DNA from: Acidobacteriota bacterium
Lineage (GTDB): Bacteria > Acidobacteriota > UBA890 > WLXD01
Assembly: GCA_965248695.1 (NCBI GenBank)
Contig: CBDFKD010000002.1
Coordinates: 1,408,001 to 1,472,000, forward strand
Reading direction: 5' to 3'
Length of the DNA stretch: 64,000 bases
The notes beneath the pieces are model-generated. The model saw only the letters and a program-made list of their open reading frames with translations. It was not told the origin of the DNA and did no database searches. A program made the position numbers and the translations under genes. This document shows, one piece after another, positions 1,764 through 35,024 of the stretch (positions within the stretch are counted from its first letter, which is position 1; every line of letters begins with the position of its first letter).

Positions 1764-3443
1764 CTAGGCTACCTGCGACTCGATCTGTTCCGGAAGGTGC
1801 AGCCGCCACCACTCGACGGCGTGACGCTGAGTCCATCGCGCCCCAGTGTCCGCTTCGGCCAGCAACTGCGCAAACTCCGCCATGCTCTGTGGGCGATCCT
1901 CGGGTGCTTTGTGGAGGCCGGCGAGGATCGCCTGATCGAGTGATGGCGAGATCTCCACCTCGCTCCGCTTCGACGGCGGTACCGGCTCTTCCTGGACGTG
2001 CTTAAGCACCATTTCCATCGCCGTCACACCCTCGAAGACCAGCGCGCCTGTGAGCAGCCAGTAGCCCACGGCCGCCAGTGCGTAGACGTCGGTGCGCTCA
2101 TCCGCAGCGCTGGCCCCGCGAGCCATTTCCGGCGGAAAGTACGCTGGGGTACCGGTAGCCACACCCTCCACCGTGAGGCTCGTGGCGGCGCCTTCCGAGT
2201 TGTCGAACGACTTCACCAGACCGAAGTCGAGCACTTTCAGCCAGTCGTATTCGTCGGCCAGCGCTCCGACATGCAGATTGGCGGGCTTGATGTCGCGGTG
2301 AACGAGCCCGCGGGCGTGCGCCTCCCCCAGTGACCGTGCCGCCTGGGCCAGCAGGTGTGCCGCCCGTGCCGGCGGCAGCGGGCCGAATCGCTCGACGAGC
2401 TGCTCGAGATCGAGGCCGCTCAGGAACTCCATCACGTAGAAGAACGTGCCGCCCTCGGTGACTCCGAAGTCGTACAGCTGCACCGTATTCGGCGAGCGCA
2501 GCGTTGCCGTGGCGCGCGCCTCGCGCGTGAACCGCGCCGTCACCATGCCGGGATCCACCTTGCCGCCCAGCATCTCGGGCCGAATGATCTTGATCGCCGC
2601 GGGTCGAGCCAACATCCGATGCTCGGCGCGCCAAACCTCGCCCATGCCGCCCTCGCCGAGCTTGCCCAGCAACCGGTACATACCGGCGTCACCGGCCTCT
2701 GCGGCGGCCTTGCGGTAGCCACTGATCACCCAGGTTCCGAAGACTGCCAGAAAGCCGCCGAGAACCATCATGAACAGGACGAAGCTTGCCTGCTCTGCCA
2801 TGTTGATTTCTGCAAACTGCCGCAGCTGCGGGTAGACGTAGAAGGGCGCTAGCTGGGCGGCAACGCCCACGCCGCTCACCGCGAGGACGTAGCCCAACGT
2901 CTGTGTCCACCGTGCCGGGATCAGGATGGCGTACAGCGCCATGAACAGCACGTAGATCCCGGGCATTCGATTCGCCTGCAAGGTGTAGTTGAGCAGGTTG
3001 CCGCCGCGGATATCGACACCCAGTAGCATCACCTGGTTGAGCGCCGTGGAAAGCACCATCGCACCCAGCAAGAAGGCTTCGAGGATGCGGAGACCGCCCT
3101 CCTGTAAACGCCAGCGACGCAATGAGAGCAACACTGAGACCGCCAGGACGACGTTGAACAGCGTCACCGGCACCCCGTTCGGGTCGTAGACCGCGAACCG
3201 CGCCGCGGCCAGCGCGGAGCCCACCAACACGATGATGGCTACGGCCACCAGCCTGGATTGCAGCAGCGATGCGGTCTGTGACTCCAGACGCTGCGTCGCA
3301 CCGGCGTTCAGACCACGCCGGGGGCAGAAAAGCAGGCCCTCTCGTGGCCCCGCAGCTACGCTCGCCCAATCCGGCGCGTTGTCCGAGCCAGATGCGCCGG
3401 GCTCCAGCACGGTTTCAACGCTATCAGGGGCGGCGCGACTCAT
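1764..3443 (-). CDS. membrane-anchored Hanks-type Ser/Thr protein kinase
   Basis: LGEGGMGEVW, AAIK, HRDIKPAN, DFGLVK, GTPAY motifs after several N-terminal TM helices. Start placed at ATG 3443 (ATGA overlap with the dipeptidase stop). Confidence 0.93.
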   Translation of the reverse strand: MSRAAPDSVETVLEPGASGSDNAPDWASVAAGPREGLLFCPRRGLNAGATQRLESQTASLLQSRLVAVAIIVLVGSALAAARFAVYDPNGVPVTLFNVVLAVSVLLSLRRWRLQEGGLRILEAFLLGAMVLSTALNQVMLLGVDIRGGNLLNYTLQANRMPGIYVLFMALYAILIPARWTQTLGYVLAVSGVGVAAQLAPFYVYPQLRQFAEINMAEQASFVLFMMVLGGFLAVFGTWVISGYRKAAAEAGDAGMYRLLGKLGEGGMGEVWRAEHRMLARPAAIKIIRPEMLGGKVDPGMVTARFTREARATATLRSPNTVQLYDFGVTEGGTFFYVMEFLSGLDLEQLVERFGPLPPARAAHLLAQAARSLGEAHARGLVHRDIKPANLHVGALADEYDWLKVLDFGLVKSFDNSEGAATSLTVEGVATGTPAYFPPEMARGASAADERTDVYALAAVGYWLLTGALVFEGVTAMEMVLKHVQEEPVPPSKRSEVEISPSLDQAILAGLHKAPEDRPQSMAEFAQLLAEADTGARWTQRHAVEWWRLHLPEQIESQVA

Positions 3444-4576
3444 TCTCCGGTTTGCAGACCCTGCGCCACGGCTTCGACCTCGCGCCACACACGCAGCAGA
3501 TTGCCGCCCCAGAGCGCCGCGATGTCCTCCTCGCTGTAGCCCCGGTGGACGAGCTCGAGCGTCACGTTGAACGTCTCGCTGGCATCGTTCCAGCCCACCA
3601 CTCCGCCGCCGCCGTCGAAATCGGAGCTGATGCCGACGTGCTCGAGACCGATCAGGTTGACGGCGTGATCGATGTGGTCGACGAAGTCGGCCACAGTGGC
3701 GGGCGCATCGCCCTCCGCGGTGGTCTTCACGAAGTCTCCGAGCGCCACCATCTGGATTACGCCGCCGTTGTCTCGTAGCGCCAACAGCTGCTCGTCATCC
3801 ATGTTGCGTGATACATCACACAGCGCGCTGCAGGCCGAGTGCGAGCCGATCACAGGAGCCTGCGACAGCTCCGCCGCTTCGAGCATTGCCGCTTTGGAGG
3901 CATGCGAAACGTCGATCATCATGCCGACGCGATTGACCTCGGCGATCACCTCGGCACCGTAGTCGCTGACGCCGCCATACAGCTCGGCCGGCTCGCCATC
4001 GCGGGGATTGGTGGAGTCGGCGATCTGATTGTGGCCGTCGTGCACCAGCCCGAAGTAGCCACCCCCGAGCTCCTTGAAGCGGGCGAGGTTCGCAAGATCC
4101 TCACCCACGGGGTAGCCGTTCTCGATGCCAATCGCCGCGGCCAGCTTGCCGGCACCAACGATGCGCTCGACGTCGTCGGGGCTGGCCGCGAGCTCGATGG
4201 TGTCCGGATGCATCTCCTCGGTCATTCGGCGGATCGCGGCGAACTTGCTCATTGCCTGCTCGTAGGCACCGGCGAACCCCTCGTTGTCGTTCTCCCCTTG
4301 TCCGACGAAGACGACGAAGAACGCCACGTCGAGGCCACCCTCGCGCATCTTCGGTAGGTCGACCTGGCGGTCGCCGCGAACGCCCGGATCCACCTCGGAG
4401 GTGGCGAAGTTCGCGGGTATGTCGTCGTGCGTGTCGATCGTGATGGCACGCTCGTGAATGCCTCGCGCGACGGCATCGAGATCGGCTTCGGTAACTTCCA
4501 CCGGCTCCGGGGTGGCGCACCCCACCGCGATCAAACAGAGCGCCCCGACAGGCACGCACCAGTGTTTCTTCAGCAT
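3440..4576 (-). CDS. membrane dipeptidase (M19 family), probable lipoprotein
   Basis: IDTHDD, VDLPKMREGG, GIENG, DVSH, SHS, SSDFDG motifs; lipobox-like AVGC. Confidence 0.93.
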   Translation of the reverse strand: MLKKHWCVPVGALCLIAVGCATPEPVEVTEADLDAVARGIHERAITIDTHDDIPANFATSEVDPGVRGDRQVDLPKMREGGLDVAFFVVFVGQGENDNEGFAGAYEQAMSKFAAIRRMTEEMHPDTIELAASPDDVERIVGAGKLAAAIGIENGYPVGEDLANLARFKELGGGYFGLVHDGHNQIADSTNPRDGEPAELYGGVSDYGAEVIAEVNRVGMMIDVSHASKAAMLEAAELSQAPVIGSHSACSALCDVSRNMDDEQLLALRDNGGVIQMVALGDFVKTTAEGDAPATVADFVDHIDHAVNLIGLEHVGISSDFDGGGGVVGWNDASETFNVTLELVHRGYSEEDIAALWGGNLLRVWREVEAVAQGLQTGE

Positions 4577-4613
4577 CTCCGAATCTCCATTCTCAGCGGC
4601 CCGCAGGCCTTCG

Positions 4614-5558
4614 TCACTCCATGATCGTCAGCGCCGACATCACCTCACGCTGCGACTCGCTCCCGAGCGGTCGATTCACCAGCAGACCGTCCACTACCAG
4701 CGTGGCCGACCCACCGCCATCGAGATTGAGCGCCTCGATACAGCCGACGTCCCGCATGAGCTCGGCCAGCTCGCGCAGGTCCACACCACGGCTCTCACGC
4801 TGGCGACCGTCCACCACCATGACGATGAGCTCCCCATCGGCGGTCACGCCGGCGGCCGAACGGGGATGCTCCTCGTCGCTGGCGGTGCCGAAAAAAACCT
4901 CTTCGTGGCTCGTGACCCGTATCTCGCCGGCGTGGACCAGCACGGGCCCACCGGCGACGGCGTCGCGGACTGGCCACTCGATCAAGGCGTCGACCTGTGG
5001 CTCCGCCGCCGGTGCGTCCGGCGCGTTCTGCGGTGGATCGGCTTGCTCGTAAAGAACTCCCTCGTGCCCGGTTACCCATGCAACATCGGCAGAACCGTCG
5101 AGCATCAGACCGAGCGCCGCCCTGGCGACGTAGTAGCGCCGTTCCTCGTAGATGACCGACGTCAACGGCGGCTGCAGCAAGGCACTATCGACGAGCAATA
5201 GGCCGATATGTTGCGGTGGGTCGGTGTCGGTACGGAAGAACCCCGCATTGACCACCACCCGCGCTGATGTTCTGTCGGCGAACTCAGAAGCCGTCTCGAC
5301 TCCGTCGTCGTCGGCGGACAGCGACACTCCAGCCAGCAGCTCGCCGCCCTCACGCCGAACCCGCACATACCAGGCGCGTAACGGGATGCTGGGGTCGGCG
5401 CCCGAATACACCCGAATCCGGTCCGGGAGCCCGCGGTTGAGCGACTCCACCGGCGCCCAGGCAATGCGCAGTTCGCCAGGGGCCGGCTCACAGGCGCTAA
5501 GCGCGACGCCTGCCGCGCACACAACAACCAGCAGGCACCGCCGGAGGGGCGTCGTCAC
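4614..5558 (-). CDS. phosphodiester glycosidase (NAGPA-like) family lipoprotein
   Basis: VNAGFF, HPRSAAG, VVDGRQ, ALNLDGGGSA motifs; LSAC lipobox. GTG 5558 overlaps the NUDIX stop. Confidence 0.88.
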   Translation of the reverse strand: MTTPLRRCLLVVVCAAGVALSACEPAPGELRIAWAPVESLNRGLPDRIRVYSGADPSIPLRAWYVRVRREGGELLAGVSLSADDDGVETASEFADRTSARVVVNAGFFRTDTDPPQHIGLLLVDSALLQPPLTSVIYEERRYYVARAALGLMLDGSADVAWVTGHEGVLYEQADPPQNAPDAPAAEPQVDALIEWPVRDAVAGGPVLVHAGEIRVTSHEEVFFGTASDEEHPRSAAGVTADGELIVMVVDGRQRESRGVDLRELAELMRDVGCIEALNLDGGGSATLVVDGLLVNRPLGSESQREVMSALTIME

Positions 5559-6127
5559 TTGGTCCCCTGCAAGCCGAGAAAATGGAACGCAGCGACGACC
5601 AGCGAATGGTGGATCAGGCCGCCGGCGATGAGCTCCGGGATCTGCGCCAGGGGTAGCAAGCGGATGCCGAACTCTTCGTGCAGCTCCGGGGTTGGAGCCT
5701 GGGTGACGCACGCGTCGCGCACCAGCACGGTATGGCAGCGGTTGTTGAAGATCGCCGGATTGGGCGTCACGCTGCCAATCAGGCACGCTTCACTGCCCGC
5801 GTAGCCGGTCTCCTCGACCAGCTCACGCACCCCGGCCGCCAGCGGCGCCTCCCCCGGATCGACCATGCCGCCCGGTATCTCGAGTGTGACCTCCGCGTTG
5901 CCGTGACGGAACTGTTCGATCGCTACCACCTCGCCGGCCATTGTCAAAGCGATCACATTCACCCAGTCGTCGGAATCGATGTAGACGAACTCACCGGGCT
6001 GTTGTGGGCGCGCCGGCGAAGTGCCTCGACGACGACGCAGGGTGAAGATCCTGGTCTCTGCGATCGTCGAGTCATCGTCGTGGCGCCATGCCGGCACCAT
6101 CGTGAGCAGCGGTGGATCAGCCCTCAA
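5555..6127 (-). CDS. NUDIX hydrolase (ADP-ribose pyrophosphatase-like)
   Basis: Nudix box GGMVDPGEAPLAAGVRELVEETGY. Start may instead be ATG 6100. Confidence 0.92.
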   Translation of the reverse strand: MRADPPLLTMVPAWRHDDDSTIAETRIFTLRRRRGTSPARPQQPGEFVYIDSDDWVNVIALTMAGEVVAIEQFRHGNAEVTLEIPGGMVDPGEAPLAAGVRELVEETGYAGSEACLIGSVTPNPAIFNNRCHTVLVRDACVTQAPTPELHEEFGIRLLPLAQIPELIAGGLIHHSLVVAAFHFLGLQGTK

Positions 6128-6659
6128 GCGCGACTCCCAAGCCGTCGGCGATGCGGTTTACATATGCGTAGTACGAGATTACCTCGACGATGCCGAGAAT
6201 GTCCGGGTCGCCGAAGCTCGCCTTGCGCAAGGCGACCACGTCGTGGTGCTCCATCTGTGCCGGGTGCATGGTGAGCTTCTCGGCAGAGCGCAGCATGGCG
6301 AGCCGACGATCGTCGAGATTAGCGGCCTCGTAGTTCGCCTCGATACGGCCCCCGAGCTCGTCGTCACGCAGCAGCCGGCGCAGACCACGCCGGTGGTGGG
6401 TGATTCAGTAGCCGCAGCCGTTCAGCTTCGACACCAGCAACGCGATCATCTCGCGATCGACCGTGCGCAGCCCCGGTGAGCCGCGCATCACAGCCGTGTA
6501 AAGGTCGAAGTGGGCGCTCAGCCCCGCTGGATGCAGCGAGTGCACCCGCATGATGTTGTCGAGCTCGCCGGTCAACGGGTCGAGCACGCGATCGTACAGC
6601 TCGGCAAGCTCCGGCGAGGCGTCTTCGTTGCTGCGGGTTTCGATCCAGGCCGATTCCAT
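6117..6659 (-). CDS. AhpD-like/peroxidase-related (CMD family) selenoprotein, 180 aa, Sec at codon 85 (UGA 6405-6407)
   Basis: The 84-aa ORF ends REMIALLVSKLNGCGY-TGA. The same frame continues ITHHRRGLRRLL...AEKLTMHP...YYAYVNRIADGLGVALEG to TGA 6117. This gives the AhpD CxxC-xxH motif as CxxU, and a SECIS-like hairpin follows the UGA. Confidence 0.88.
6375..6407 (-). promoter_or_regulatory. bacterial SECIS element
   Basis: UGA + 11 nt (AUCACCCACCA) + 7-bp stem CCGGCGU/GCGCCGG with a GGUCU loop; same 18-nt UGA-to-GGUCU spacing as the E. coli fdhF SECIS. Confidence 0.8.
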
Positions 6660-6691
6660 GCGTCAGACTCCGGAAACGAGGATTTGGCAGA

Positions 6692-9600
6692 ATGATACGC
6701 ATGTCTCGTCGCCGCCGCCGGTTGTTCATCGTCTGCGCGTTCGCGGCGGCAGCAGCGGTCAGCGGAATCGCTGCGCTGCACACGCCGTGGGCGCGAGCCC
6801 GCGTGCTGGCGGCCGCACTGTCCCGGATCGCCCCGGACGGCAGCGTCTCGGCTGAACGGCTCGACTACCGGCTGCCGACGTTGTGGTTCCGGTTGCAAGG
6901 GCTACAAGTTCGAACTTCGGGCCAGGAGCGCCCGTACTTCACCGCCGAGGAGCTCAGCATCGATCTGCCATGGAGCGCCGCCTGGCGCGGGCTGGCTTTC
7001 CAGCACATCGAGCTCAGACGGCCGCGCCTGGCGGTCTTCGTCGACGCCGACGGCCTCACCAACTTCGCCGGTGAAGCGACCCGCATCGACACGCCGATCC
7101 CCTTCGATCGATTGCAGGTTTCCGGCCTGCAGATCGAGTGGCGCGACGATACGGCTGGCTACGCGTTCGAGGCCGATGGTATCGACCTCGAGCTCGGCGA
7201 CCTGGCACGGGGCCGGCTGCAGATGCCCGCTCCCGCCCGCGTGCGCGTGGCCGACCGGCGGCTGGAGATTGCCCTCGCCGGTGGCGACCTCGATTGGGAC
7301 GGACGCGACCTCGGAATCGACGCGCTGCGGCTGGACAGCGCCGCGTCGGAACTGAACGTTGACGGTTCCATCAAACAGCTGCTGGCCGATCGAGAGCTCG
7401 GTCTCGACATCAGCGCCCGGACATCGCTGGGCATGCTGACCGACATTGCCGGCCTCGACGTCGCCGGGGAGTCGCTCTTGGTGACCGGCCGCCTGGAAGG
7501 TCCGGCGCAGACGCCGACGGCGAACCTGGAGCTGGAAATGGACTCGGCGATGTGGCGTGACATCGCGCTTCGGGGAATCCGCGGCCACATCAACGCCGAC
7601 CATGAGACGGTGCGGCTGAGCGCCCTGCGCGCCGGGCTCGCTGGCGGCGAGGTGATCGGCGAAGTCGAGGTAGGTCTTGAATCGGATGCCGCCAGCCGCC
7701 TCACGGCGGAATGGAAGGACATCGATGCCGGCACCCTTGTGGAGGGATACGGCGCCACGTCGATCGTTCCAGCCGCCCGGCTCGATGGCGAGTTGCGCGC
7801 ACAATGGCCCGGCCCGCGGCCCTCTCTGGCTGGGGTCCGCGCGGTGCTATCCACGGAGCTCACTCGCGTGCCGACAAGTTCGGACGGAATAGCGCTCGAC
7901 GGCCGCTTCGATGCCGAGCTTGCGGCCGGTGAGTGGTTTGCTCGCGGCCAGGTCGCTGTCGCGGCCGCTATGCGGATCAACACCGATCTGAGCGGCAACG
8001 CTACAGCTCGGACCGTCGGCGGAACCATGCGGCTCGACGTCAACGATCTGGGCGCCGCGGCGCGACCCTTCGCCGGCCTCGCGCCCGGCCTGGCCCAACT
8101 GGCCGTCACCGATGGGCGAGCAACGGCGCGCTTGACCCTCGGGGGAACGGTGACCGACCCGACGATCTCCGGCAACGCTCGCATCGAACAGCTCCGGGTG
8201 GCGGACGCCGGGCCAATGACACTCGAAACCGACCTAATAGCCAGCGCCGAATCGCTCCGGATCCACAACGCGACGGTCGAGTTCCCCGGCGGCAGTCTGG
8301 AGGCGGACCTGCAGATCGATGCGGCCGGCCGATTGCACGGTCGAGTCGAGGGTGGCGCGTCCGAGCTGAGCCTGGCTGTCGCCCAGCTGCCGATCGGAGA
8401 CCGGATAGCCGCGGCCGGCGGCGTCAGCGGCTCGGCAACCTGGGACCTGACCCTCGAAGGCACGCTGCCGTTGCCCGACATCACGGGTACCGTCAGCGCC
8501 GAAGGAATCCGAATCGGCAGTAGTGTCCCGATCGACGCCAGCGCCCGTCTCTCGTCCAGCGACTACGGCATCCGCGTCGACGAGTTGATCGCGACCTCCG
8601 GCGACAACCGGTTGACCCTCAGCGGAGTCATCGGCGCCGAAGGTCAGTCGGTGGATCTACTGGGCGAGCTCGATGTGCAGGCGCCCGAAGCTCTCACCGA
8701 CCGACCGGAGCTCGCATATCTCCGCTCGGCCCGGGCGGAGATCGCCATCGGTATCGACTTTCCAGCATCGATCGTGGTGGTCGATCTCTGGTCGCTGCAC
8801 GCCGACTTGCCACGCTTCCCGGTCCGCAGCTTGACGCCGGGTCGGCTGACCTGGAGTCCCGCCGAGGTGAGCGTCGAAGACTTCGCTCTGCGGGTCGGCG
8901 ACCTCGACCTGGCCGTTGGCGGGACGCTCGGCGGCACGGCGACGCAGGGAATCCACGGACGACTGCGCGGCGACCTCTCACGCCTCTCCGACCTGGCAAC
9001 GATGGCTTTGGTCATCGCAACTGACGTGCCCGACAGGCAGCCAGTGGTCCTGTCCGGAAACCTCGACGTCGATCTTCGCCTCGGCGGCACGCTGGCCGAG
9101 CCGCGACCCCGGGGCTCGCTCCGGGTTAGCGACGGCAACGTCGTTGTCGACGGAATGGGCGCTCTCGAGGCGCTGCAGCTGAACGCCGAGATGGACAGCG
9201 ACGGCCTCCGAATCGGCCAGCTACGGGGACGGTTCCGTGGCGGCGAGCTGGAGGGCGAGGCATCTTTGTCGGTGCAGGCGCTGGTGCCGGCGCTGTCTCT
9301 CGACAGCGCCTCTGCAGACATCGTGCTGGACTCCTTGTTTGTGCGCCGCGACGAGGTGACGGTGTCGCAGCAGCGGCCAACGCGCCTGCGCTTGGAAGCG
9401 GGAACCATGCGTATCGTTGACTGGTTCTGGTCAGGGTCGGCGCAAGACGACCTCAGCCTGGCGTTGGCGGGGTCGGTCGAGCTCCGGCACCCGCGGGTGC
9501 TCGACCTGCTGCTGACCTCGAATCTCGGGCTCGCGTGGCTGGGCTCGATGACCGGCGCCGCGGCGCTCGACGGAGCGGCCCACGCATCGGTAACGATCAC

Positions 9601-12600
9601 CGGGACCGCCGGAGACCCCATCGTCAACGGCAATATCGACCTCACCGACCTGGGTTTCGTGATCGCGGATCCGCAAGTCGTGGTGAGCGACGTCAACGGT
9701 ACGCTGGCGATCAGCGGCACGGAGCTCCGGGCCGAGGGGCTTCGAGGCATCGCCAACGGCGGCGAGGCAATGCTGTTTCTCGACCTCGATCTCGCCGACC
9801 CCTTGAACCCCTCGGGGCTGGCGGAGCTGACGGCGCGCTCGATCGTCGTCGAGGTGGGCGGAGGACGAGCGCTGGGAGACGCCGACGTCACCGTCAGCGC
9901 GTCGCAGCACGGCGGACGCCGTGCGTTCGGCGAGATTCGTCTTCTCGCCGGCGGTTATCGTACCGACGCATCGCTGGCGGCGGACCTGGTTCGGGCGTCA
10001 GCTGTGAGTCAGACACCTGCGGCTGACCGCCCATCGCTATTCGACGATCTGGCTTACGACCTGCGCGTGACCACGGTCGAGGACCTCCGCATCGCCACGC
10101 CCTACGCCGAGCTCGGCCTGGCCACCGATCTCCAGATTGTCGGGACGTTCGCGCGTCCCGGGGTCCTGGGCCGGATGACGGTGCGGGACGGTGGCGTCGT
10201 GCGCCTTGCCGGGCATGCGTACAGCGTCGATCGTGGGGTTATCGAGTTCGCCGAGACCAATCGCGTTGCGCCGACGCTCGACATTGCCGCGCGAGCCGAG
10301 ATCGGTGGCGAGCAGATCAGCGTGCTGTTGACCGGCAGCGCATTCGATCCCACCGTCGAGGCCAGTGCGGAGTCGGGCCTGGACTCGGGCGACGTGCTGT
10401 CGCTCATGGCTACCGGACGGACGGCCGCCGCCGCTGGCGACGCCGGACGGGAGGTGCTGGCTGAGCAGGCCTTCGATCTACTCACGGGCCAGTACCTCGC
10501 CGGCGCCGTTCAGCGGCTCGGCTTCGAGTCGGTGCGATTCGAGCGCGGGGGATCGGCCGCCGGAGACAGCGAGCTGTTTCCGCGTGATACCGATCTGGCC
10601 TCGCGCCTGACGCTCACGCGCAGCATCCGCAACACGTTCGACCTGGTGTTCTCGCAGAACCTCACCAACGCCGACGAGCGCAGTTGGATCGGAACCCTGC
10701 GCCTACCGTTCGGTCTGGCACTGCGAGGCGGTACGTTCGACGACGGCACGCGGTCGCTGGAGCTGCAGCACCGGCTGACCCTCGGATCGAGGACGCCGAC
10801 CGGCGACAGCGGTGGCCGCGCTCCTCCGGTACGGTCGGTGCGCTTCGAAGGCAGCCCGGGCTATGCCGAGGACGTTCTCCGGCAACAGATTCGGGTGCGC
10901 GCCGGCGATCGTTTCGACTTCCTCCGCTGGCAGGAGGACCGCGATCGGCTCTTGCGCCTCTATCACCGCGGTGGGTTTCTCGAAGCCGACATCCGTGCTC
11001 GGCGCTCGCCGCCAGCCGGCACCGACCCGGTGACGATCGACGGCGTCGACCTGACCTACGCAATCGACCGGGGCGCCGAAGCGATCCTGACCATCGAGGG
11101 TGACCTGCCGAGCAGCGTACGCAAGGAACTGCTCGAGGCGTGGGGCGACAGCGTGCTGACGGAGTTTCTTCTCGAGGACATGCGACAGATCGTGCAGGCG
11201 CATCTCGCCGGCCGCGGTCACGTGCGCCCGGCGGTGGCCGCCGAGCTCATTCAGGACGGTGCTCGCAAGGAGATCCTGCTGCGCTTCGATGCCGGTGCGC
11301 GCTACCGGCGTGCCGACTCCATCATCGTTGGCAACACGGGACTCGACACCGAGCTCATCCGGCGCCGGTTACGCACGCGGGGGCTGAACGCAGCGGACTG
11401 GGCGCATCAGAACGAGCTCGCCGACGCGGTACGAAACCTGTATATCGAACGCGGCTGGCTCGACGCCGAGGTCAGAGCTTCCGGGCCGCTGATCGACGGC
11501 GACGACGCCCGACTGCGCATAGAGATCGACGAGGGGCGCCGCTACCGGCTCGGCAGCATGCGCGTCAGCGGCAACGCGCTGATCGGCTCGGAGCTCTTGC
11601 TCGATGCGCTGGCGCTGCAACCCGGCGACGACTACGACCGCGACGCGCTCGCCGCCGGTGGTGACGCGGTCCTCGAGGTCTACCTGCAGCGAGGACACAA
11701 CGGCACCACGGTACGTGCTGCTGCCGACGGCCGAGCAGAAACCGCCGTGGTCGATATCGAGCTGGTCGTCGAAGAGGCACCGCAACAGATCCTGACGGAG
11801 CTCAGGATCGACGGGCTGCAGCACGTGCGTCGCTCGGTTGTCGAGCGCGCCATCAGCGCGGAGCTCGGCACGCCGCTGGTGCGGAGCGATCTGCAGTCGG
11901 CCAGGCAACGCCTGTACGCCACTGGCGTGTTCGAGCGCATCAAGTTGGACGTGGTGACCAGCGGTGTACTGAGCGACGGACGTCAACCGGTCGTCCTGCA
12001 GGTAGAAGTCACCGAAGCGCCACGTTTGCAGCTTCGCTACGGAGTTCAGCTATTTAGCGATCAGACCCTCGAGGACCAGCGCGAGACGCGCCCAGGTGTT
12101 GCTGCGACGCTGAGCCACAGCGGATTGCTCGGACTCCCGGCGGACCTAAGCGCCACCGCTCGCTACCGCGGCAAGGACCGGCTGATCCGAGGGGTGCTCG
12201 GCTTTCGGGGTCTGTTCGGAGCCCCGGTGCGCACGGCGCTGATCGGCGAGCGCTCGCGTAGCGAGGTCGAGGGTTTCTTCACCACGCGCTCTGACGACAC
12301 ACAGTTCACCCTGGAGCAGCGCGTCAACGTGTCGACGGCGCTCACGGTGGGCTACAGCTACAACGTCAAGCACACGCGGTCGACGTTGCTCGGTCAGCAG
12401 CTCCAGCTGGAGCCGGTGACCTCCGCGCGCCTGGTACCGACGATCATCTACGACAGCCGCGACGATCGCCTGGACCCCGGCAGCGGACTGTTCCACAGCG
12501 CCACCCTGGAATGGGCTCCGGCCAGTCTGGGATCGGAGCTGCTCTTCCGCACGCTGCATCTGAAACAGTACGCGTTCCTGAGCCTCGGTCGGCTTACATT

Positions 12601-13030
12601 CGCCAGCGCCATCCGCTTCGCCAGCGGCGTGAGCCTCGATCCGACGTCAACGCGCCTGCCCCGCAGCGAGCGTTTCGTTGCCGGCGGCGCCACTTCGCTG
12701 CGCGGCTACCCGGACGATGCCGTCGGTGGCAGCGACTTCTTCGGGAGCTTCGTGCCCGGTGGCAACGCGGTCCTGGTGCTCAACCAGGAGGCACGCTTCC
12801 CGATCTGGCGCTGGATCCGCGGCGTTGCTTTCGTTGACGCGGGCAGCGCCTTCGAATCAGCCTCCGACATACGCCTGGGACGTCTGAAGGCGTCGACCGG
12901 CCTCGGCCTGCGACTGGCGACGCCATACCTGATGTTGCGGCTCGACTACGGCCTGCGCCTCGGCAACTTGTCGCACCTACCCGACGCATCGCGCGGACGG
13001 TTCCATTTCGGTATCGGCCATATCTTCTGA
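6692..13030 (+). CDS. TamB/AsmA-like domain fused to POTRA repeats and a BamA/TamA (Omp85) beta-barrel
   Basis: N-terminal signal anchor, long beta-rich AsmA-like region, DUF490-like segment (LQIVGTFARPGVLG..PTLDIAARAEI), POTRA-like repeats (VRFEGS, MRVSGNALI, LRIDGLQHV..LYATGVFE), Omp85 signature ERFVAGGATSLRGY, GLRLATP, C-terminal FGIGHIF. Confidence 0.88.
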   Translation: MIRMSRRRRRLFIVCAFAAAAAVSGIAALHTPWARARVLAAALSRIAPDGSVSAERLDYRLPTLWFRLQGLQVRTSGQERPYFTAEELSIDLPWSAAWRGLAFQHIELRRPRLAVFVDADGLTNFAGEATRIDTPIPFDRLQVSGLQIEWRDDTAGYAFEADGIDLELGDLARGRLQMPAPARVRVADRRLEIALAGGDLDWDGRDLGIDALRLDSAASELNVDGSIKQLLADRELGLDISARTSLGMLTDIAGLDVAGESLLVTGRLEGPAQTPTANLELEMDSAMWRDIALRGIRGHINADHETVRLSALRAGLAGGEVIGEVEVGLESDAASRLTAEWKDIDAGTLVEGYGATSIVPAARLDGELRAQWPGPRPSLAGVRAVLSTELTRVPTSSDGIALDGRFDAELAAGEWFARGQVAVAAAMRINTDLSGNATARTVGGTMRLDVNDLGAAARPFAGLAPGLAQLAVTDGRATARLTLGGTVTDPTISGNARIEQLRVADAGPMTLETDLIASAESLRIHNATVEFPGGSLEADLQIDAAGRLHGRVEGGASELSLAVAQLPIGDRIAAAGGVSGSATWDLTLEGTLPLPDITGTVSAEGIRIGSSVPIDASARLSSSDYGIRVDELIATSGDNRLTLSGVIGAEGQSVDLLGELDVQAPEALTDRPELAYLRSARAEIAIGIDFPASIVVVDLWSLHADLPRFPVRSLTPGRLTWSPAEVSVEDFALRVGDLDLAVGGTLGGTATQGIHGRLRGDLSRLSDLATMALVIATDVPDRQPVVLSGNLDVDLRLGGTLAEPRPRGSLRVSDGNVVVDGMGALEALQLNAEMDSDGLRIGQLRGRFRGGELEGEASLSVQALVPALSLDSASADIVLDSLFVRRDEVTVSQQRPTRLRLEAGTMRIVDWFWSGSAQDDLSLALAGSVELRHPRVLDLLLTSNLGLAWLGSMTGAAALDGAAHASVTITGTAGDPIVNGNIDLTDLGFVIADPQVVVSDVNGTLAISGTELRAEGLRGIANGGEAMLFLDLDLADPLNPSGLAELTARSIVVEVGGGRALGDADVTVSASQHGGRRAFGEIRLLAGGYRTDASLAADLVRASAVSQTPAADRPSLFDDLAYDLRVTTVEDLRIATPYAELGLATDLQIVGTFARPGVLGRMTVRDGGVVRLAGHAYSVDRGVIEFAETNRVAPTLDIAARAEIGGEQISVLLTGSAFDPTVEASAESGLDSGDVLSLMATGRTAAAAGDAGREVLAEQAFDLLTGQYLAGAVQRLGFESVRFERGGSAAGDSELFPRDTDLASRLTLTRSIRNTFDLVFSQNLTNADERSWIGTLRLPFGLALRGGTFDDGTRSLELQHRLTLGSRTPTGDSGGRAPPVRSVRFEGSPGYAEDVLRQQIRVRAGDRFDFLRWQEDRDRLLRLYHRGGFLEADIRARRSPPAGTDPVTIDGVDLTYAIDRGAEAILTIEGDLPSSVRKELLEAWGDSVLTEFLLEDMRQIVQAHLAGRGHVRPAVAAELIQDGARKEILLRFDAGARYRRADSIIVGNTGLDTELIRRRLRTRGLNAADWAHQNELADAVRNLYIERGWLDAEVRASGPLIDGDDARLRIEIDEGRRYRLGSMRVSGNALIGSELLLDALALQPGDDYDRDALAAGGDAVLEVYLQRGHNGTTVRAAADGRAETAVVDIELVVEEAPQQILTELRIDGLQHVRRSVVERAISAELGTPLVRSDLQSARQRLYATGVFERIKLDVVTSGVLSDGRQPVVLQVEVTEAPRLQLRYGVQLFSDQTLEDQRETRPGVAATLSHSGLLGLPADLSATARYRGKDRLIRGVLGFRGLFGAPVRTALIGERSRSEVEGFFTTRSDDTQFTLEQRVNVSTALTVGYSYNVKHTRSTLLGQQLQLEPVTSARLVPTIIYDSRDDRLDPGSGLFHSATLEWAPASLGSELLFRTLHLKQYAFLSLGRLTFASAIRFASGVSLDPTSTRLPRSERFVAGGATSLRGYPDDAVGGSDFFGSFVPGGNAVLVLNQEARFPIWRWIRGVAFVDAGSAFESASDIRLGRLKASTGLGLRLATPYLMLRLDYGLRLGNLSHLPDASRGRFHFGIGHIF

Positions 13031-17689: not shown

Positions 17690-19129
17690 CTACTCGGGCG
17701 GCTCCGGCTGCAGACCCGCATCCGGGAGCAGCGCGGAGGCGCCCGGCTGGGCAGGTGCGGGCTCCAGAAGCAGGTGGCTGTCGATGAAATCGCCGAGAGC
17801 GCTGCGCAGCCAGATGACGAAGGCGACAGACGACACCAGCGCCACCATGAGGAGGCCGACGAGCATGCCGTACATCTGCGGATAGCCGAGCCAGGACGCC
17901 ACCCGAATGCCGAGCAAGGCGAGCGGCACGGTGAGGATGACGGTGCGCACGACAGCCATGATCAGGCCTGGCTGTCCGCGCCCCATCGCCTCGAATACGG
18001 GCCGCATGAGGAAAAAGGGCGTACTCAGCAGACACGCGAAGGGAACCGAGTACAGGGCGAAGCGCGCATAGTCGACCGTTTCCGGCGACTCTGCCAACGC
18101 GCTGGCCAGCCAGGGCCCCACCAGCACGATCACCGGCCCGACGATGACGATCGAGTACAACGCCGAGGCCACCAACGACTGACGAATTCCCTGACGCAGA
18201 CCCTCCCAGTCTTGCTTGCCGACCAGCCGGCTGGCGAACGGCAGCATCGCCACAGACATCGCGATCAGCGGGTTCATCGCGAACAGCAGTACACGGTGGT
18301 AGATCGAGTACGCCGCGATCGCCGCGGTGGCGGTTCCGAGACCCGCAAGCATCGCGTTGATGACCGCCATCTCCACCGCGGTGAGCACAAAGCTCAGCCC
18401 CGCCGGCAGGGCAAGTGTCAGCTGCCGCCAGTAGGGCGCCGGATCCAGGCCGGGCACGGTGTGGGTGCCGGCGGCGCGCCGGCGATCCTCATGCTCCTTG
18501 GCCTTCTTCAGCGCGTAGACCAGGCCCCCGACGCGTCCGATGACGGTCGACAGCGCGATGCCGAAGATTCCCCAATGGAAGACGAACAGGAAGATCGTGT
18601 TGAGCACCAGATTGATGACGTTCGAGGCAATCCCCGCCCACATCGTCGAGCGCGTGTCCTGATGCGCCTTGACGATGGAATCCGGCATCACGGACCAGAA
18701 GGCGGTGAACGCCGATCCGCCCAGCATCACCGTGGCATACAGGCGGAAGCTCGCGAAGACCTCGTCCGAGAGACCGAACTGTGGCGCCAGGAACCAGATG
18801 AACGCCCCCAGCGCCACGAAGACCGGCGAGATAATCCAGGTCATCCGCCAGGCAGCGCTGAGGTACTGCTCGATCTTGTCGCCTTCGCCGGAAGCCATGC
18901 TGCGTGACAGCGCCGCGGTAAGGCCGGTCGACATGCCCACCCAGATGGCGATCATCAGAAACTCGAACGGGACCGTCAGGCCGATCGCGGCGACGGCAGC
19001 GTCGCCGATGGTGGCAGCGTAGATCGTGTCGACGAAAGTGAACGCGGCGCGCATGACGAACGACACCACGAGCGGTGCCGACATCTGGAACAGCGACGGT
19101 TCGCGCTGCGAGTTGACGAAGGAGGACAC
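17690..19129 (-). CDS. MATE family efflux transporter
   Basis: About 12 TM; VDTIYAATIG, NLVLNTIFLFVFHWGIFGIALSTVI pattern typical of MATE proteins. Confidence 0.9.
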   Translation of the reverse strand: MSSFVNSQREPSLFQMSAPLVVSFVMRAAFTFVDTIYAATIGDAAVAAIGLTVPFEFLMIAIWVGMSTGLTAALSRSMASGEGDKIEQYLSAAWRMTWIISPVFVALGAFIWFLAPQFGLSDEVFASFRLYATVMLGGSAFTAFWSVMPDSIVKAHQDTRSTMWAGIASNVINLVLNTIFLFVFHWGIFGIALSTVIGRVGGLVYALKKAKEHEDRRRAAGTHTVPGLDPAPYWRQLTLALPAGLSFVLTAVEMAVINAMLAGLGTATAAIAAYSIYHRVLLFAMNPLIAMSVAMLPFASRLVGKQDWEGLRQGIRQSLVASALYSIVIVGPVIVLVGPWLASALAESPETVDYARFALYSVPFACLLSTPFFLMRPVFEAMGRGQPGLIMAVVRTVILTVPLALLGIRVASWLGYPQMYGMLVGLLMVALVSSVAFVIWLRSALGDFIDSHLLLEPAPAQPGASALLPDAGLQPEPPE

Positions 19130-19169
19130 TGGCAGGCCGTGGTGAAAGCGTCGTGGATCTGGTTGCTAC
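19129..19169 (+). mobile_element. degenerate relic left end of the CTAG-MITE family
   Basis: CTGG-CAGGCCGTGGTGAAAG-cgtcgtggat-CTGGTTGC-tac aligns with the MITE end CTAG-CAGGCCGTGGTGAAAG-tgtggcgggc-CTGGTTGC-gac. Confidence 0.7.
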
Positions 19170-27549: not shown

Positions 27550-27814
27550 CTAGCAGGCCGTGGTGAAAGTGTGGAGGGTCTGGTTACGGCGAGTTGGGGC
27601 CAGATGCAAGGCGGCCTGCTAGCCATCGTCGAGGAAGGCCAACGCCGCAGATGGCCCCAAATCGCCGTAACCCTTCGGGCGACTGGGGGTTGCGCGCGCA
27701 TGCTGCGTCGTTTGTCGTCAACGATGGGATTACCATCGCCTCCTCCTGTCTCCTGGCCTGCGCCTCGCAAAACCCTGTCGCCAGACCCACCACACTTTCA
27801 CCACCGCCTGCTAC
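27550..27814 (+). mobile_element. MITE-like element copy 1 (265 bp, 14-bp internal deletion)
   Basis: CTAG + TIR CAGGCCGTGGTGAAAGTGTGGAGGGTCTGG ... CCAGACCCACCACACTTTCACCACCGCCTG + CTAC; colinear with the copies at 36933 and 42822. Confidence 0.88.
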
Positions 27815-29099: not shown

Positions 29100-29133
29100 C
29101 AGGACCCACCACACTTTCACCACGGTCTGTTAG
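29100..29133 (-). mobile_element. solo terminal inverted repeat of the MITE family
   Basis: CAGGACCCACCACACTTTCACCACGGTCTGTTAG matches the TIR (CCAGGCCCGCCACACTTTCACCACGGCCTG-CTAG) with few mismatches; no internal element sequence beside it. Confidence 0.8.
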
Positions 29134-29141
29134 GGGCACCG

Positions 29142-30149
29142 ATGGAATCGTTGCTGGCACAACTCGAGGACACGGGTGCGCAGCAGCTGACGATCTTCAC
29201 CGACGTGGACTCCGGGCTGCGCGCCTTTCTGGTGATCGACGACACCACGCTCGGCCCTGCCGCCGGTGGCACGCGGACATGGGCCTACGCATCGGCCGGC
29301 GATGCGATCGCGGATGCTTGCCGCCTGGCCAGCACGATGACCCTCAAGTGTTCGCTTGCCGGAGTGGATGCCGGCGGCGCCAAGATGGTGGTGATGGACC
29401 GTCCCGAGCTGGATCGCGTTGCGGCGTTTTCGTTTCTGGGCGAGCGAGTCGAAGAGATGGGCGGCAGCTTCATGACCGCCGGCGATCTCGGCACGTCACG
29501 CGCCGATCTCGAGATCATGGCTTCGCGGAGCCAATGGGTGCGCAGCGACGAGACCGACCTCGCCGTCATGGTGGCACGGGGTGTCGTCGGCTGCGCCTGC
29601 GCGGAAATCGCTGGGCACGCGGGCCTGGAAGGACTCCGCGTCGGCGTCCAGGGTTGCGGCAGCATCGGCGCCGCAGTGGCCCACGAGTTCGCTGCCGCCG
29701 GAGCGCAGCTAGTGGTCACCGATCTCGACGAAGTCGCAGCGTCCAGCACCGCCGATGCGGTTGGCGCGCAACTCGTGGCACCCGAAGAGATCCTACGGGC
29801 CGCGGTAGACATCCTGGCACCCTGTGCGGCCGGCGGGTTGCTGACCACCGCGGCGGCGCGTGACTTGCGCGCCTGGGCAGTGTGCGGCGCCGCCAACAAC
29901 ATCCTTGCCGGGCCCGAGGTCGAGGAAGCATTGAGTGATCGCGAGATCCTGTTCGTGCCGGACTTCGTGTCCTCGTCGGGCGCGGTGATCCTCGGCGTTT
30001 GCCACTTCCACGAGCGCGACGACGCCGAGGCGCTGCTCGAGGGACTGGCACGCACGACTCGCGAGCTATTGCAAGAGTCGCTCACCAGCAGCGAGTCGAC
30101 GACCCGCCTGGCGGAACGCCGGGCGCGCAAGCGCATCGCGGCAGGGTAA
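29142..30149 (+). CDS. Glu/Leu/Phe/Val dehydrogenase family protein
   Basis: IDDTTLGPAAGGTR, MTLK, GGAK, VQGCGSIG, DILAPCA, GAANN, VPDF..SGAVI. Confidence 0.92.
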   Translation: MESLLAQLEDTGAQQLTIFTDVDSGLRAFLVIDDTTLGPAAGGTRTWAYASAGDAIADACRLASTMTLKCSLAGVDAGGAKMVVMDRPELDRVAAFSFLGERVEEMGGSFMTAGDLGTSRADLEIMASRSQWVRSDETDLAVMVARGVVGCACAEIAGHAGLEGLRVGVQGCGSIGAAVAHEFAAAGAQLVVTDLDEVAASSTADAVGAQLVAPEEILRAAVDILAPCAAGGLLTTAAARDLRAWAVCGAANNILAGPEVEEALSDREILFVPDFVSSSGAVILGVCHFHERDDAEALLEGLARTTRELLQESLTSSESTTRLAERRARKRIAAG

Positions 30150-30399
30150 CCAGCCAGGGCGCGCAAGCGCATCGCGGCAGGGTAACCAGCCAGGGCGCGC
30201 AAGCGCATCGCGGCAGGGTAACCAGCCAGGGCGCGCCAGCGTATCGCCGCAGGGTAACCAGCCAGGGCGCGCTAAGCGTATCGCCGCAGGGTAACCAGCC
30301 AGGGCGCGCTAAGCGCATCGCGGCAGGGTAACCAGCCAGGGCTCGCCAGCGCATCGCCGCAGGGCAACTGGCCAGGGCGCGCCAGCGTATCGCCGCAGG
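30121..30399 (+). repeat. tandem array of 7 full + 1 partial 36-37-bp units derived from the dehydrogenase 3' end
   Basis: Unit GGGCGCGCAAGCGCATCGCGGCAGGGTAACCAGCCA starts at 30121, 30157, 30193, 30229, 30265, 30302, 30339, 30375 with no spacers; a further copy spans about 30485-30530. Confidence 0.95.
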
Positions 30400-30600
30400 C
30401 CGCTAGCTCGCCACGTACTTCGTGATCCCGCCACCAGCCGTCGGTCTCGACCCCGGACCTTCTGCCGCATATACGTTGCCGTCGGCATCGCGGCAGGGTA
30501 ACCAGCCAGGGCTCGCCAGCGCATCGCCGCCGCCAGCGTACGCCGCTAGCTCGCCACGTACTTCGTGATCCCGCCACCAGCCGTCGGTCTCGACCCCCGG
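30399..30600. repeat. ~57-bp direct duplication of the NHL gene 3' end (30399-30456 and 30542-30600)
   Basis: GCCGCTAGCTCGCCACGTACTTCGTGATCCCGCCACCAGCCGTCGGTCTCGACCCC appears twice. Confidence 0.92.
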
Positions 30601-31642
30601 CCACACCCTGCAAGAACCGCACATCGTGCGGATGCGGCGGCACGAAACCGGTCAAACGATCTTCACCGGCCGGCCCGATCCTTACACCGGTCTTCCAACC
30701 CGGGTGATTCTGGACGCCGGACTCGGAATCGATCGCATAGAGCGTGTCGTCTGCAGTGATGAACAGCCCGCTGATGCGGCTGTACTGCGTATAGATGTCG
30801 AGCAGCTCGCCTTCCTGGTCGAAGATCTGGATCCGGTGGTTGCCCCGGTCGGCAACGTAGCGACGCCCCTGCGAGTCGAACTCCATCGCATGCGGGGTGC
30901 GGAACTGCCCCGGCCTGAAGCCGATCTCGCCCCACTGCTTGATGAAGGTCCCGTCGGCCGAGAACTTCAGAATTCGTCCGGTAGCGCCTTCCGGCGGATC
31001 GGGATTCTGGCCGCTGTGCCCATCAGAGACGAAGATGTCGCCGTTCGAGGCCGTAATGACATCGCACGGCTCGTTGAGCTGTCCCGGCCCGCTCCCCGGC
31101 TGACCGGCAGTTCCCAATCGGAGCAGCTCTTCACCCTCTGGACTGAACTTGATGACCTGGTGCCCCTTCGTTCCGGACTCGTTGCCCTGCGAGTCGGTCA
31201 CCCAGACGTTGCCCTCGTCGTCGACGTGCAGCCCGTGCGGCAACACGAACAATCCCTTACCGAAGGCCGCCATGATCTCGCCGGTGTCCTTGTTGAACTT
31301 GAAGACCGGATCACGATCGGAGTTCTCTTCGCACCCACCGGCCAGCGCCAGGCCGCCGCAGCGGTCATACGCCCAGACGTGGCCGTCGGGTCCGATGTCG
31401 ATCCCCGCCGTGGAACCCCACTCACGTTCGTCTGGCAGCGCCGCCCAGTTCAGCAGCACCTCTCCGGTCGGGTTCGGCAGCTGCCGATCGACCCAGTCGC
31501 TCGCAGTTCCCGTCTCCGCCGCCGCGCCGCTGTCGGCCGCAGGGGCCATCGCGTCACCGCCGCAGGCGGCGACGGTCGAGAACAGGACCGCTACGAGTGC
31601 TGCACCGGCACGCCTGCCGTGGAACCGTCGATCGTCAGTCAT
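30403..31642 (-). CDS. NHL-repeat (peptidyl-alpha-hydroxyglycine lyase-like) lipoprotein; 3' end scrambled/frameshifted in this sequence
   Basis: VAAC lipobox; PHGLHVDDEGNVWVTD, GDIFVSDGH, GQFRTPH, YVADRGNHRIQIFD. The natural tail DADGNVYAAEGPGSRPTAGGGITKYVAS* (30403-30489) is out of frame with the body. Confidence 0.85.
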
Positions 31643-31709: not shown

Positions 31710-32627
31710 TCAGCTCCCGTGGAGCCTCGCGCCAAGCTCGCGTGCGGCTTCTGCAACGCGCGGGCCGGGCACGAGCATCCAAGCGGCGGCAAGGGTCACT
31801 ACCCGGACCTCGGAAAACCCTGGCAGGGTGCGCCACTCCGCCTCCAGCGTAGCTGCGGGAACGGCTTTCTGACCGTCAGAACGCAACTCCACCACGACGT
31901 CCGGTACGCGCGCGATAACCGCCTCGAGCCCGGCTTTGAACCCCGGGCGCGTCACATCGTCGAAGACGTTGCGGGCACCGGCGATCGTGGTGAGCTCCTG
32001 CAAGAAACCAACGCCGCCGTTCACCCACAGCTCGGCGAAGCTACCGTCGCGGCGCCCGAAAACCATCAACACGTTCGGCGGCTCGTCCGACGCGTAGGAG
32101 GCGCGCACCGCGTCGAGGTCGGCCCCTACCCTGTCGGCCGCCCGCGCGGCGTCCTCGGACAGGCCCAGCATGCGGCCCAGCTCGAGCATGTTGCGGAGTA
32201 GATCGCTGACGTCGGCGGTGGCGTAGTCGTAGGTGGCGATGCCGCTCGCCTCCAGCTGACGGCGCAGCGAGCCCTGGGACGGGTCGATGACCGCCAGATC
32301 GGGGCGCAGCGCGAGGATGGTCTCCAGGTCAGGGTCGATCAATCCTCCGACCCGCGGCAGCTGTTCCACCTCGGGGGGCCAGTGATCGAAGCTACTCACT
32401 CCGACGAGGCGCCCGCCGGCGCCGATAGCGAACAGCACCTCAGTAGCAGCAGGCACAAGCGAGACGACCCGTACGGGCGGCGCCTCCGCCCGCGCGCTCG
32501 CCGCCCACAGCGGCGTCGCCAACGAGAACGCGACCAGCACAAGGGTCGCAGAACGTGCCTGTGCCGGTAGCCTGAGACCGCGCAAGGATCCTGGAGAGAA
32601 TCGCGATTCTATGATTGCATGCGTCAC
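31710..32627 (-). CDS. btuF: cobalamin ABC transporter substrate-binding protein (helical backbone metal receptor)
   Basis: RVVSLVPAATEVLFAIGAG..LVGVS, PDLETILALRPDL, PGPRV; clustered with btuCD and the riboswitch. True start may be GTG 32540. Confidence 0.85.
   Translation of the reverse strand: MTHAIIESRFSPGSLRGLRLPAQARSATLVLVAFSLATPLWAASARAEAPPVRVVSLVPAATEVLFAIGAGGRLVGVSSFDHWPPEVEQLPRVGGLIDPDLETILALRPDLAVIDPSQGSLRRQLEASGIATYDYATADVSDLLRNMLELGRMLGLSEDAARAADRVGADLDAVRASYASDEPPNVLMVFGRRDGSFAELWVNGGVGFLQELTTIAGARNVFDDVTRPGFKAGLEAVIARVPDVVVELRSDGQKAVPAATLEAEWRTLPGFSEVRVVTLAAAWMLVPGPRVAEAARELGARLHGS
32597..32610. promoter_or_regulatory. perfect 14-bp palindrome AGAATCGCGATTCT, candidate operator
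   Basis: Self-complementary, AT-richer than background, between the divergent btuF and prepilin-like genes. Confidence 0.35.
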
Positions 32628-32660
32628 GATGTCACGGCTTCAACCAAGAGAGGTAGAGAT

Positions 32661-33134
32661 TTGGCAAGCGGCACAGCAGGGCATCGTCGCGCGGTGGATC
32701 CGGAGGCCGGCTTCTCATTGATCGAGGTTGTGGGCTTCTTCATCTTCGGCATCGCTATCGTTAGCGCCATCTATGTAATCACGCGCACCGAGGTAACCTA
32801 CGGCAGTTGGACTAACGTACCGCCCACCGTCGTGGCCGGGACCACCGGAACCGGCGTGTGGAGGATGGTCAAGAGCGTAGATGGCGGGCCAGGTCAGCCG
32901 CTCGAGGGCCGCTCGGTGAGCTTCCGCGTCAGCTGTGGACCCGGTGTGTCGGCAGTCATCAGCGCCACCCAAGGGGCGGTGGTGAGCCCCGCAGCAACGA
33001 CGACAGAAGCCGTCACCGATGCCCTGGGTCTCGTAAGAGTGACAATCGATCTGGACGGAGTTGGGAAATGCTACGTATTCGCAACCGACTCGGTTAGTAA
33101 ACGCACCGAGACATGGACCTTCGACGTGCCATAA
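32661..33134 (+). CDS. prepilin-type N-terminal cleavage motif protein with Ig-like (Big_1-like) domain
   Basis: G|FSLIEVVGFFIFGIAIVSAIYVI then GQPLEGRSVSFRV...AVTDALGLVRVTI; AGAGAGG RBS before TTG 32661 (ORF track starts at 32619). Confidence 0.65.
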   Translation: MASGTAGHRRAVDPEAGFSLIEVVGFFIFGIAIVSAIYVITRTEVTYGSWTNVPPTVVAGTTGTGVWRMVKSVDGGPGQPLEGRSVSFRVSCGPGVSAVISATQGAVVSPAATTTEAVTDALGLVRVTIDLDGVGKCYVFATDSVSKRTETWTFDVP

Positions 33135-33175
33135 ACAGGTCGCCGGTCGATCGTGACCTGCATACCCGCCGTGGC

Positions 33176-34989: not shown

Positions 34990-35024
34990 GGTGACACCCT
35001 TTCCCGCGAGGGCCGGCCGCCTGG

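Follow-up and report, generated by a model that had tools for sequence, protein, structure and literature searches.

A single gene in the 64,000-nucleotide stretch of Acidobacteriota DNA analyzed here (the window) very probably encodes a 180-residue selenol/thiol oxidoreductase of the AhpD fold, in which an in-frame UGA would be decoded as selenocysteine (Sec) to give a C-G-Y-U motif. Read-through of this UGA had been proposed from the DNA letters alone. It is now supported by TGA at the same codon in 79 of the 80 best-matching loci in GTDB, by the conservation of both halves of the protein, by Cys opposite the UGA in homologues, and by a covarying SECIS-type hairpin. The gene is a further member of a known, predicted selenoprotein family. 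Its recognition corrects an annotation error, as gene-callers tend to cut the gene in two, and the presence of the gene probably marks an uncultured lineage of Acidobacteriota as a user of selenium. The hidden part of the family is large, with at least 479 candidate stretches in GTDB, of which 79 of the best 80 carry the UGA. Current views of selenium biology are unchanged.

The family itself is on record. Table 1 of PMC13188914 lists "AhpD-like protein, TIGR01926, CxxU" as predicted with high confidence and not experimentally verified, in agreement with the sequence-only reading, which had named AhpD-like proteins as a reported bacterial selenoprotein family. The Sargasso Sea (PMC1088965) and GOS (PMC2398784) surveys described it with 27 and 299 sequences, respectively, and BSepDB holds a page for it (PMC13326102). 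BSepDB or published supplements may already list the sub-clade or the organism. The window gene matches the family (TIGR01926 / COG2128, "AhpD-like 1") in its CxxU motif, its in-frame UGA and its downstream bSECIS. Likeness was judged by the TIGR01926 profile, CxxU and bSECIS, and by these measures there is no categorical difference.

Gene structure

The gene runs from 6659 to 6117 on the minus strand, a point that the sequence-only reading had left out; translation of the plus strand over 6117-6659 gave nothing meaningful. The ATG at 6659 opens a frame of 84 codons that ends at the TGA at 6407-6405, within NGCGY*ITHH, and 95 more codons then lead to the TGA at 6119-6117. The minus-strand translation thus agrees with the earlier statement that an 84-residue ORF stops exactly where the CxxC motif of AhpD has its second Cys. 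Stops are present in both other frames of the 3' half, and the third-position GC is coding-like in both halves (0.87 and 0.82). A search for sigma-70 promoters over 3300-6900 found none. The features of the gene are collected in Table 1.

Table 1. Features of the predicted selenoprotein gene in the window (window coordinates)
Feature	Position	Strand	Remark
AhpD-like / peroxidase-related (TIGR01926) selenoprotein gene, predicted	6117..6659	-	180 aa if UGA85 is read through
N-terminal 84 codons, the truncated ORF of gene-callers	6408..6659	-	100% identical to the 84-aa record P0122
Glu70 codon, proton-relay Glu	6450..6452	-	invariant in 80/80 alignment rows
Cys82 codon, first Cys of C-G-Y-U	6414..6416	-	Cys in 81/81 sequences
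In-frame UGA, codon 85, inferred selenocysteine	6405..6407	-	TGA in 79/80 best GTDB loci, TGC in 1
SECIS-type upper stem-loop, codons 89-95, including the end of the His89 codon	6375..6393	-	7 bp (5-bp conserved core), 5-nt loop
Apical loop GGUCU, first G 18 nt past the UGA; putative SelB contact	6382..6386	-	GG[TG]CT in 79/80 best loci
C-terminal 95 codons past the UGA	6120..6404	-	TIGR01926 positions 84-173
Terminal TGA, true stop	6117..6119	-	homologue column carries TAA/TAG too

Protein family, fold and active site

The 180-residue read-through protein scored 124.6 bits against the TIGR01926 profile (cut-off 81.8), covering model positions 2-173 of 178. The separate halves reached 36.8 and 67.7 bits, both below this cut-off, over positions 2-81 and 84-173. 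The Pfam CMD cut-off was likewise passed by the read-through protein only (39 vs 23 bits). The claim that the 95 further open codons complete a peroxidase-related CMD protein is borne out by these two profiles. The protein failed the cut-off of TIGR00777, the profile for AhpD proper (23.7 vs 191.95). It also failed that of NF041238 (AhpD_rel_CFYUT), a distant AhpD-fold selenoprotein of the CFYUT type; this is a different family, with a model of 357 positions, which the window protein matches weakly (E 4e-12; 46 bits vs 175).

A structure model was built on an 80-row alignment (the window protein, 65 of the 80 loci and 14 database proteins) and was folded with Cys substituting for Sec. Its pLDDT was 96.7, and it replaced a single-sequence model with a pLDDT of 41.3. 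Among the best solved relatives (3c1l, 2pfx and 6k40), the second Cys of CxxC stands opposite the UGA in all three. The model superposed on 6k40 (Deinococcus DR1765) with a TM of 0.91 and matched 2prr, 6k40, 3c1l, 2pfx and 2oyo at full length, with Z of 23.4-23.7, rmsd of 1.8-2.1 and 175-179 aligned residues. These proteins, DR1765 (6k40), Mlr4105 (3c1l), 2pfx, 2oyo and 2prr, have the same length and fold as the model (TM 0.88-0.91), and their first Cys, Tyr and His align with those of the window protein. They differ in having Cys where the window gene has UGA, and they lack the Arg-Arg that precedes the loop-making Gly in the window gene.

The arrangement is that of an AhpD-like protein of the CMD fold: a helical hairpin and a Glu / C-x-x-C / His relay, the second Cys being the UGA. 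All 80 alignment rows have E70, C82, Y84 and H89; together with U85, these residues are spaced as Glu118, Cys130, His132, Cys133 and His137 of the AhpD relay (PMC3141380), so that by spacing Glu70 is the equivalent of M. tuberculosis AhpD Glu118. The helical hairpin and the relay spacing are common to M. tuberculosis AhpD, P. aeruginosa PA0269 and the window protein, whereas M. tuberculosis AhpD is a weaker structural match (Z ~11) and the window gene has no linked ahpC.

The solved structures bear also on the chemistry. A selenoprotein with a chemistry other than peroxide or disulfide reduction, for instance reductive dehalogenation like that of Bmp8, is an unlikely reading, and one that touches function only. 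The debrominase Bmp8 does have its fold in common with the model (Z 18.9, rmsd 2.7, 173 aligned; profile E 1.4e-5), and the recurrent neighbours of the gene include no peroxiredoxin partner. The five peroxidase-related structures are nevertheless far closer (Z 23.4-23.7, with 24-33% identity vs 17% for Bmp8), mutants of DR1765 are H2O2-sensitive and the protein needs both of its Cys residues (PMC8945050), and PA0269 has weak peroxidase activity (PMC3141380). A literature search on Bmp8 returned no paper for comparing catalytic residues. Neither AhpC/AhpE nor a lipoyl partner was found among the 23 annotated recurrent neighbour clusters within 5 kb.

Conservation of the UGA among homologues

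The GTDB search used an alignment of the C-terminal halves only as query, so the identity of codon 85 was not selected for. It returned at least 479 relatives among 591 stretches, and the best 80 loci were read. By record label, these belong to Actinomycetota (35), Planctomycetota (23), Acidobacteriota (9), Pseudomonadota (1), Chloroflexota (1) and Gemmatimonadota (1), with 10 unassigned. Of these loci, 79 have TGA at codon 85 and one has TGC; TAA, TAG and TGG do not occur at this position. The terminal stops of the same 80 genes are TGA in 59, TAG in 18 and TAA in 3. In all 80 loci the frame is open for at least 83 codons before codon 85 and for 94-112 codons after it. The mean identity of the window protein to the 80 homologues is 64% in the C-terminal half vs 54% in the N-terminal half. 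Alignment with homologues, suggested earlier as a check, placed Cys opposite the UGA in 12 of the 21 full-length database matches (among the best 120 of 564), as it did in 3c1l, 2pfx and 6k40. The UGA thus sits in frame on a conserved Cys column, with flanks conserved on either side.

These comparisons speak against two readings in which the UGA is not decoded. One is a pseudogene, a Cys gene with a recent nonsense mutation or an error of sequencing. It would require one change only (TGC or TGT to TGA), yet it is refuted by the same TGA in 79 of the best 80 loci from at least six phyla and by a 3' half that is conserved at least as well as the 5' half; we consider it extremely improbable. Alternatively, the UGA could be a true stop between two translationally coupled half-genes, whose products assemble one AhpD fold. 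Databases do list the halves separately, many with M or V at position 86, and TGA is the commonest stop in the window, ending 33 of its 44 long ORFs. On the other hand, the codon that follows the UGA is ATC in the window gene, and it is ATG or GTG in just 21 of the best 80 loci. TAA and TAG are found at codon 85 in none of the 80, a split would delete the catalytic residue, and the covarying hairpin would be left unexplained. This reading has, in our estimate, a very slight chance of being correct.

Relationships were read from a quick version of a tree, which held 65 of the 80 loci, the window gene and 14 database proteins. The window gene forms a group with three MAGs of Acidobacteriota (support 99, 78-80% identity) that have its gene order in common, which makes an acidobacterial source organism very probable. 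Locus L033 is from a cultured organism with a complete genome, Engelhardtia mirabilis Pla133, and has the same UGA and hairpin; a literature search for Engelhardtia and selenocysteine found no usable report. The single TGC belongs to an Acidobacteriota locus (L059:9998-10000) nested among UGA forms in the quick tree, and its hairpin has the only broken closing pair among the loci, as is expected once the codon reverts to Cys. From its sequence, this one case is a probable Sec-to-Cys reversion. A search of plasmids gave 292 records, every one of which was below 60% identity. Second, distant AhpD-like genes lie within 10 kb of the UGA gene at two loci (L034:2372-2905, minus strand, and L055:16996-17280, plus strand; 28% and 33% identity).

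The column of the terminal TGA behaves differently from codon 85: in the 80 homologues it holds TGG in 44, TGA in 12, TAA in 2, TAG in 1 and other codons in 21. The window clade lacks a short C-terminal tail, lost probably through a change of TGG to TGA. The terminal TGA was also considered as a Sec codon, since it passed the loose SECIS filter, and was rejected: the hairpin overlaps the start of the Nudix gene, read-through gains 14 residues only, and the homologues carry TAA or TAG at this column.

Split records in databases

Among the best 120 of 564 matches to the full protein, 98 are C-terminal halves that start at residue 86-88. The other matches are 12 full-length CxxC forms, 8 CxxW forms, 1 CxxL form and 1 partial CxxG form. 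All 38 matches to the N-terminal half end at NxCxY, one of them being the 84-residue product of this very gene (P0122). The prediction that pipelines would split the gene was therefore accurate. None of the 158 protein matches is a record with U, although U may not be displayed in such records. One record, P0010, at 70% identity, reads CDYG and has Arg in place of His88; it is possibly a decayed copy or a mis-call.

The Trp and Gly records raise the possibility that every UGA in the genome stands for Trp or Gly (code 4 or 25), which would make the motif CxxW or CxxG. Eight full-length matches have Trp and one partial match has Gly at this column, and the terminal TGA too sits on a conserved Trp column. 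A code change is, however, excluded for the window, where TGA ends 33 of 44 long ORFs and 265 codons are TGG; TGG is found at codon 85 in 0 of the 80 best GTDB loci, and the terminal column also holds TAA and TAG. In the quick tree, three Trp forms and the Leu form nest inside the UGA clade, and three other Trp forms branch outside it. We give a changed code hardly any weight. Given this nesting and the absence of TGG from the best 80 loci, the Trp forms would seem to be artefacts of alternative-code gene calling.

The SECIS-type hairpin

Starting 11 nt past the UGA, 6393-6387 pairs with 6381-6375 in an upper stem of 7 bp with one U-G pair, which closes the loop GGUCU (6386-6382) with an energy of -11.9 kcal/mol. 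Folding thereby confirmed the stem, loop and spacing that had been noticed by eye. The stability of the hairpin alone is unremarkable, with folding z-scores of +0.59, -0.95, -1.45 and +0.32 over four cuts. A shuffled window is expected to contain the pattern UGA-N18-GGTCTG 0.53 times, and synonymous re-coding of the same peptide gave a 7-bp stem with GGTCTG in 0.33% of 20,000 draws. The decisive support comes from the homologues, through codon 85, covariation and codon choice, and not from single-sequence stability.

In most loci, the peptide that spans the hairpin was set by the search patterns. Amino-acid conservation in this region is therefore biased, whereas the choice among synonymous codons is unbiased. 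Gly92 is GGT in 77 of 81 sequences, compared to 17% of the 839 Gly codons at other places in these genes; for Leu93, CTG is used in 80 of 81. Over the 77 distinct rows of the alignment, 91.7% of cells are paired. Changes on both sides of a pair were found in 18 cells vs 5.6 expected from shuffles, a level reached in 0 of 500 shuffles, though this test is inflated by kinship among the sequences. The true register was the best, and no slid register came near it in cells paired. RNAalifold independently returned a 5-bp core. The outermost pair is weak, being unpaired in 32 of 77 rows, and the conserved stem is therefore 5-6 bp and not 7. At the third positions of Arg90 and Arg94, the G-C pair is replaced by A-U in 6 loci, C-G in 3, U-A in 2 and G-U in 7, and is unpaired in 2; the loci with changed pairs fall on several separate branches of the quick tree. 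A stem of at least 5 bp together with GGT was present in 72 of the 80 best loci vs 1.8 expected from random synonymous codons at window usage. The strict SECIS filter passed 77 of 80 family UGAs vs 167 of 28,558 other TGAs scanned. As judged by these sequence comparisons, the hairpin is under selection at the RNA level, apart from the protein sequence.

The bSECIS consensus, as given in PMC13188914, has a loop of 3-9 nt, an upper stem of 4-16 bp, G in the first two loop positions, a distance of 16-37 nt from UGA to loop and an energy of -7.5 kcal/mol or lower. The corresponding values of the window hairpin are 5 nt, 7 bp, GG, 18 nt and -11.9 kcal/mol, and its structure is kept independently of the protein, as seen in the compensatory synonymous changes and the fixed rare codons.

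The hairpin had been called fdhF-like, which proved right for the loop sequence and the offset and wrong for the pairing register. In E. coli K-12, fdhF has GGUCUGC at +19 to +25 and the start of the stem at +12 past the UGA, both in common with the window. Its predicted fold, however, has a bulged U and a 4-nt GGUC loop closed by A-U, whereas the window hairpin has an unbulged stem, a 5-nt loop and another pairing register, and is thus not of the E. coli fdhF type. The Moorella SECIS bound to SelB (PDB 1WSU) may be a closer type than fdhF; a literature search on the Moorella SECIS found no text confirming this.

The 5' arm of the hairpin is built by the codons of Arg90-Arg91 (6387-6392, minus strand). 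This pair of residues is typical of UGA forms and occurs in 0 of the 12 full-length Cys forms; its count in GTDB is biased by the search pattern. The RNA hairpin may have fixed Arg90-Arg91 in the protein, in which case the motif would owe its sequence to the structure of the RNA.

Sec machinery and the residue inserted at the UGA

E. coli SelA, SelB, SelD and FdhF were used as queries against the window and 1,083,018 bases of homologue flanks. Loci L015 and L058 have both selA and selB nearby, and L018 has selA; selD and fdhF had no match in the window or in these flanks. At L018 the selA gene (L018:1286-2308) follows the selenoprotein gene in the same orientation, after a gap of about 65 nt. 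A tRNA-Sec was found at L058, L067 and L070, and in an Rfam scan of nine loci these tRNAs scored 64.6-66.1 bits vs a cut-off of 47. Sec machinery is therefore near 5 of the 80 best loci, all of them Actinomycetota, L067 and L070 being near-copies of each other. The 64-kb window holds no selA, selB, selD or tRNA-Sec, and the same is true of the flanks of the nine Acidobacteriota loci. The absence from the window says little, as the contig measures 5.76 Mb and the window makes up about 1% of it. Acidobacteria and Planctomycetes that use Sec have been reported (PMC1794560, PMC12013277, PMC4807772), and we infer the Sec trait in the source organism.

Sec and Cys at a UGA are indistinguishable from sequence, and SECIS-controlled read-through could insert Cys, either with a Sec-like tRNA(Cys) UCA that is served by a second SelB or along some other route without Sec. 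Desulfobacterales have tRNAs of this kind (PMC7609411), and neither the window nor the surroundings of the loci of the Acidobacteriota relatives showed Sec machinery. We nonetheless regard insertion of Cys as improbable: the cases on record come from deltaproteobacteria, the UCA tRNAs adjacent to homologues score as tRNA-Sec and occur with selA and selB at L058, and, as noted above, users of Sec are known from the Acidobacteria and Planctomycetes. It is just as doubtful that this Acidobacteriota lineage does without conventional selABCD and decodes the UGA and SECIS non-canonically, for example with a Cys-charged UCA tRNA and a SelB of its own. This idea keeps its small share of probability because neither the window nor the surroundings of the nine Acidobacteriota loci contain Sec machinery. 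Decoding of the UGA as Sec is the reading that we prefer and consider very probable.

The Rfam scan of the window returned a cobalamin riboswitch only, with no SECIS and no tRNA-Sec. Of the 1,409 TGAs in the window, 22 passed the loose SECIS filter, 11 of them with an open frame on both sides; besides the gene described here, the 10 other candidates were judged by eye to be shadow frames or to lie outside genes. With the loose and strict filters, the window yielded no second selenoprotein candidate, and a second candidate at L065:9066 was a shadow frame. A tRNA at L002:18533-18607 has an 8-nt anticodon loop (agca) according to ARAGORN and is an ordinary tRNA according to Rfam.

Proposed mechanism

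SelB is known to bind the loop of the hairpin and to bring Sec-tRNA to the UGA (PMC13188914, PMC4605307). By analogy with this bacterial pathway, the winged-helix domains of SelB would bind the GG loop of the window transcript and deliver Sec-tRNA(Sec) to the UGA, with the genes for SelA, SelD and tRNA(Sec) presumably located in other parts of the chromosome. In cells short of selenium, translation would be expected to end at codon 85 and leave an inactive half. By homology, Glu70 and His89 would activate the Sec85 selenolate, which would reduce peroxide or an oxidized partner such as a peroxiredoxin. In work on M. tuberculosis AhpD, the second Cys position is reportedly the attacking one. Cys82 would then resolve the intermediate as a selenenyl sulfide, and a cellular dithiol, probably the lipoyl system, could recycle the enzyme.

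Gene neighborhood and other features of the window

The minus strand also carries, downstream of the selenoprotein gene (3440-6127), genes for a Nudix hydrolase (likely start at ATG 6100), an NAGPA-like phosphodiester glycosidase and an M19 dipeptidase. A divergent gene 32 nt upstream (6692-13030, plus) encodes a 2112-residue TamB-POTRA-Omp85 fusion. This gene order is kept in the nearest Acidobacteriota loci. The recurrent neighbors are lineage-specific, the Nudix, NAGPA-like and M19 dipeptidase genes being present in 6-8 loci.

The window also contains an intergenic repeat of 265-280 bp with 34-bp terminal inverted repeats and a MITE-like look. Its three full copies (27550-27813, 36933-37212 and 42821-43100) are 86-94% identical, and one of them is inverted. 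Lone ends of the repeat are found at 19129-19166 and 29100-29133, and the repeat is also present at L002:289-570. A tandem array of about 8 units of 36 nt occupies 30093-30533, followed by two 66-nt repeats (30394-30602). The cobalamin riboswitch (RF00174, 35031-35184, minus strand, 51.1 bits) lies upstream of the ORFs of 31710-35190, which by eye resemble genes for an ABC ATPase, a permease and a binding protein.
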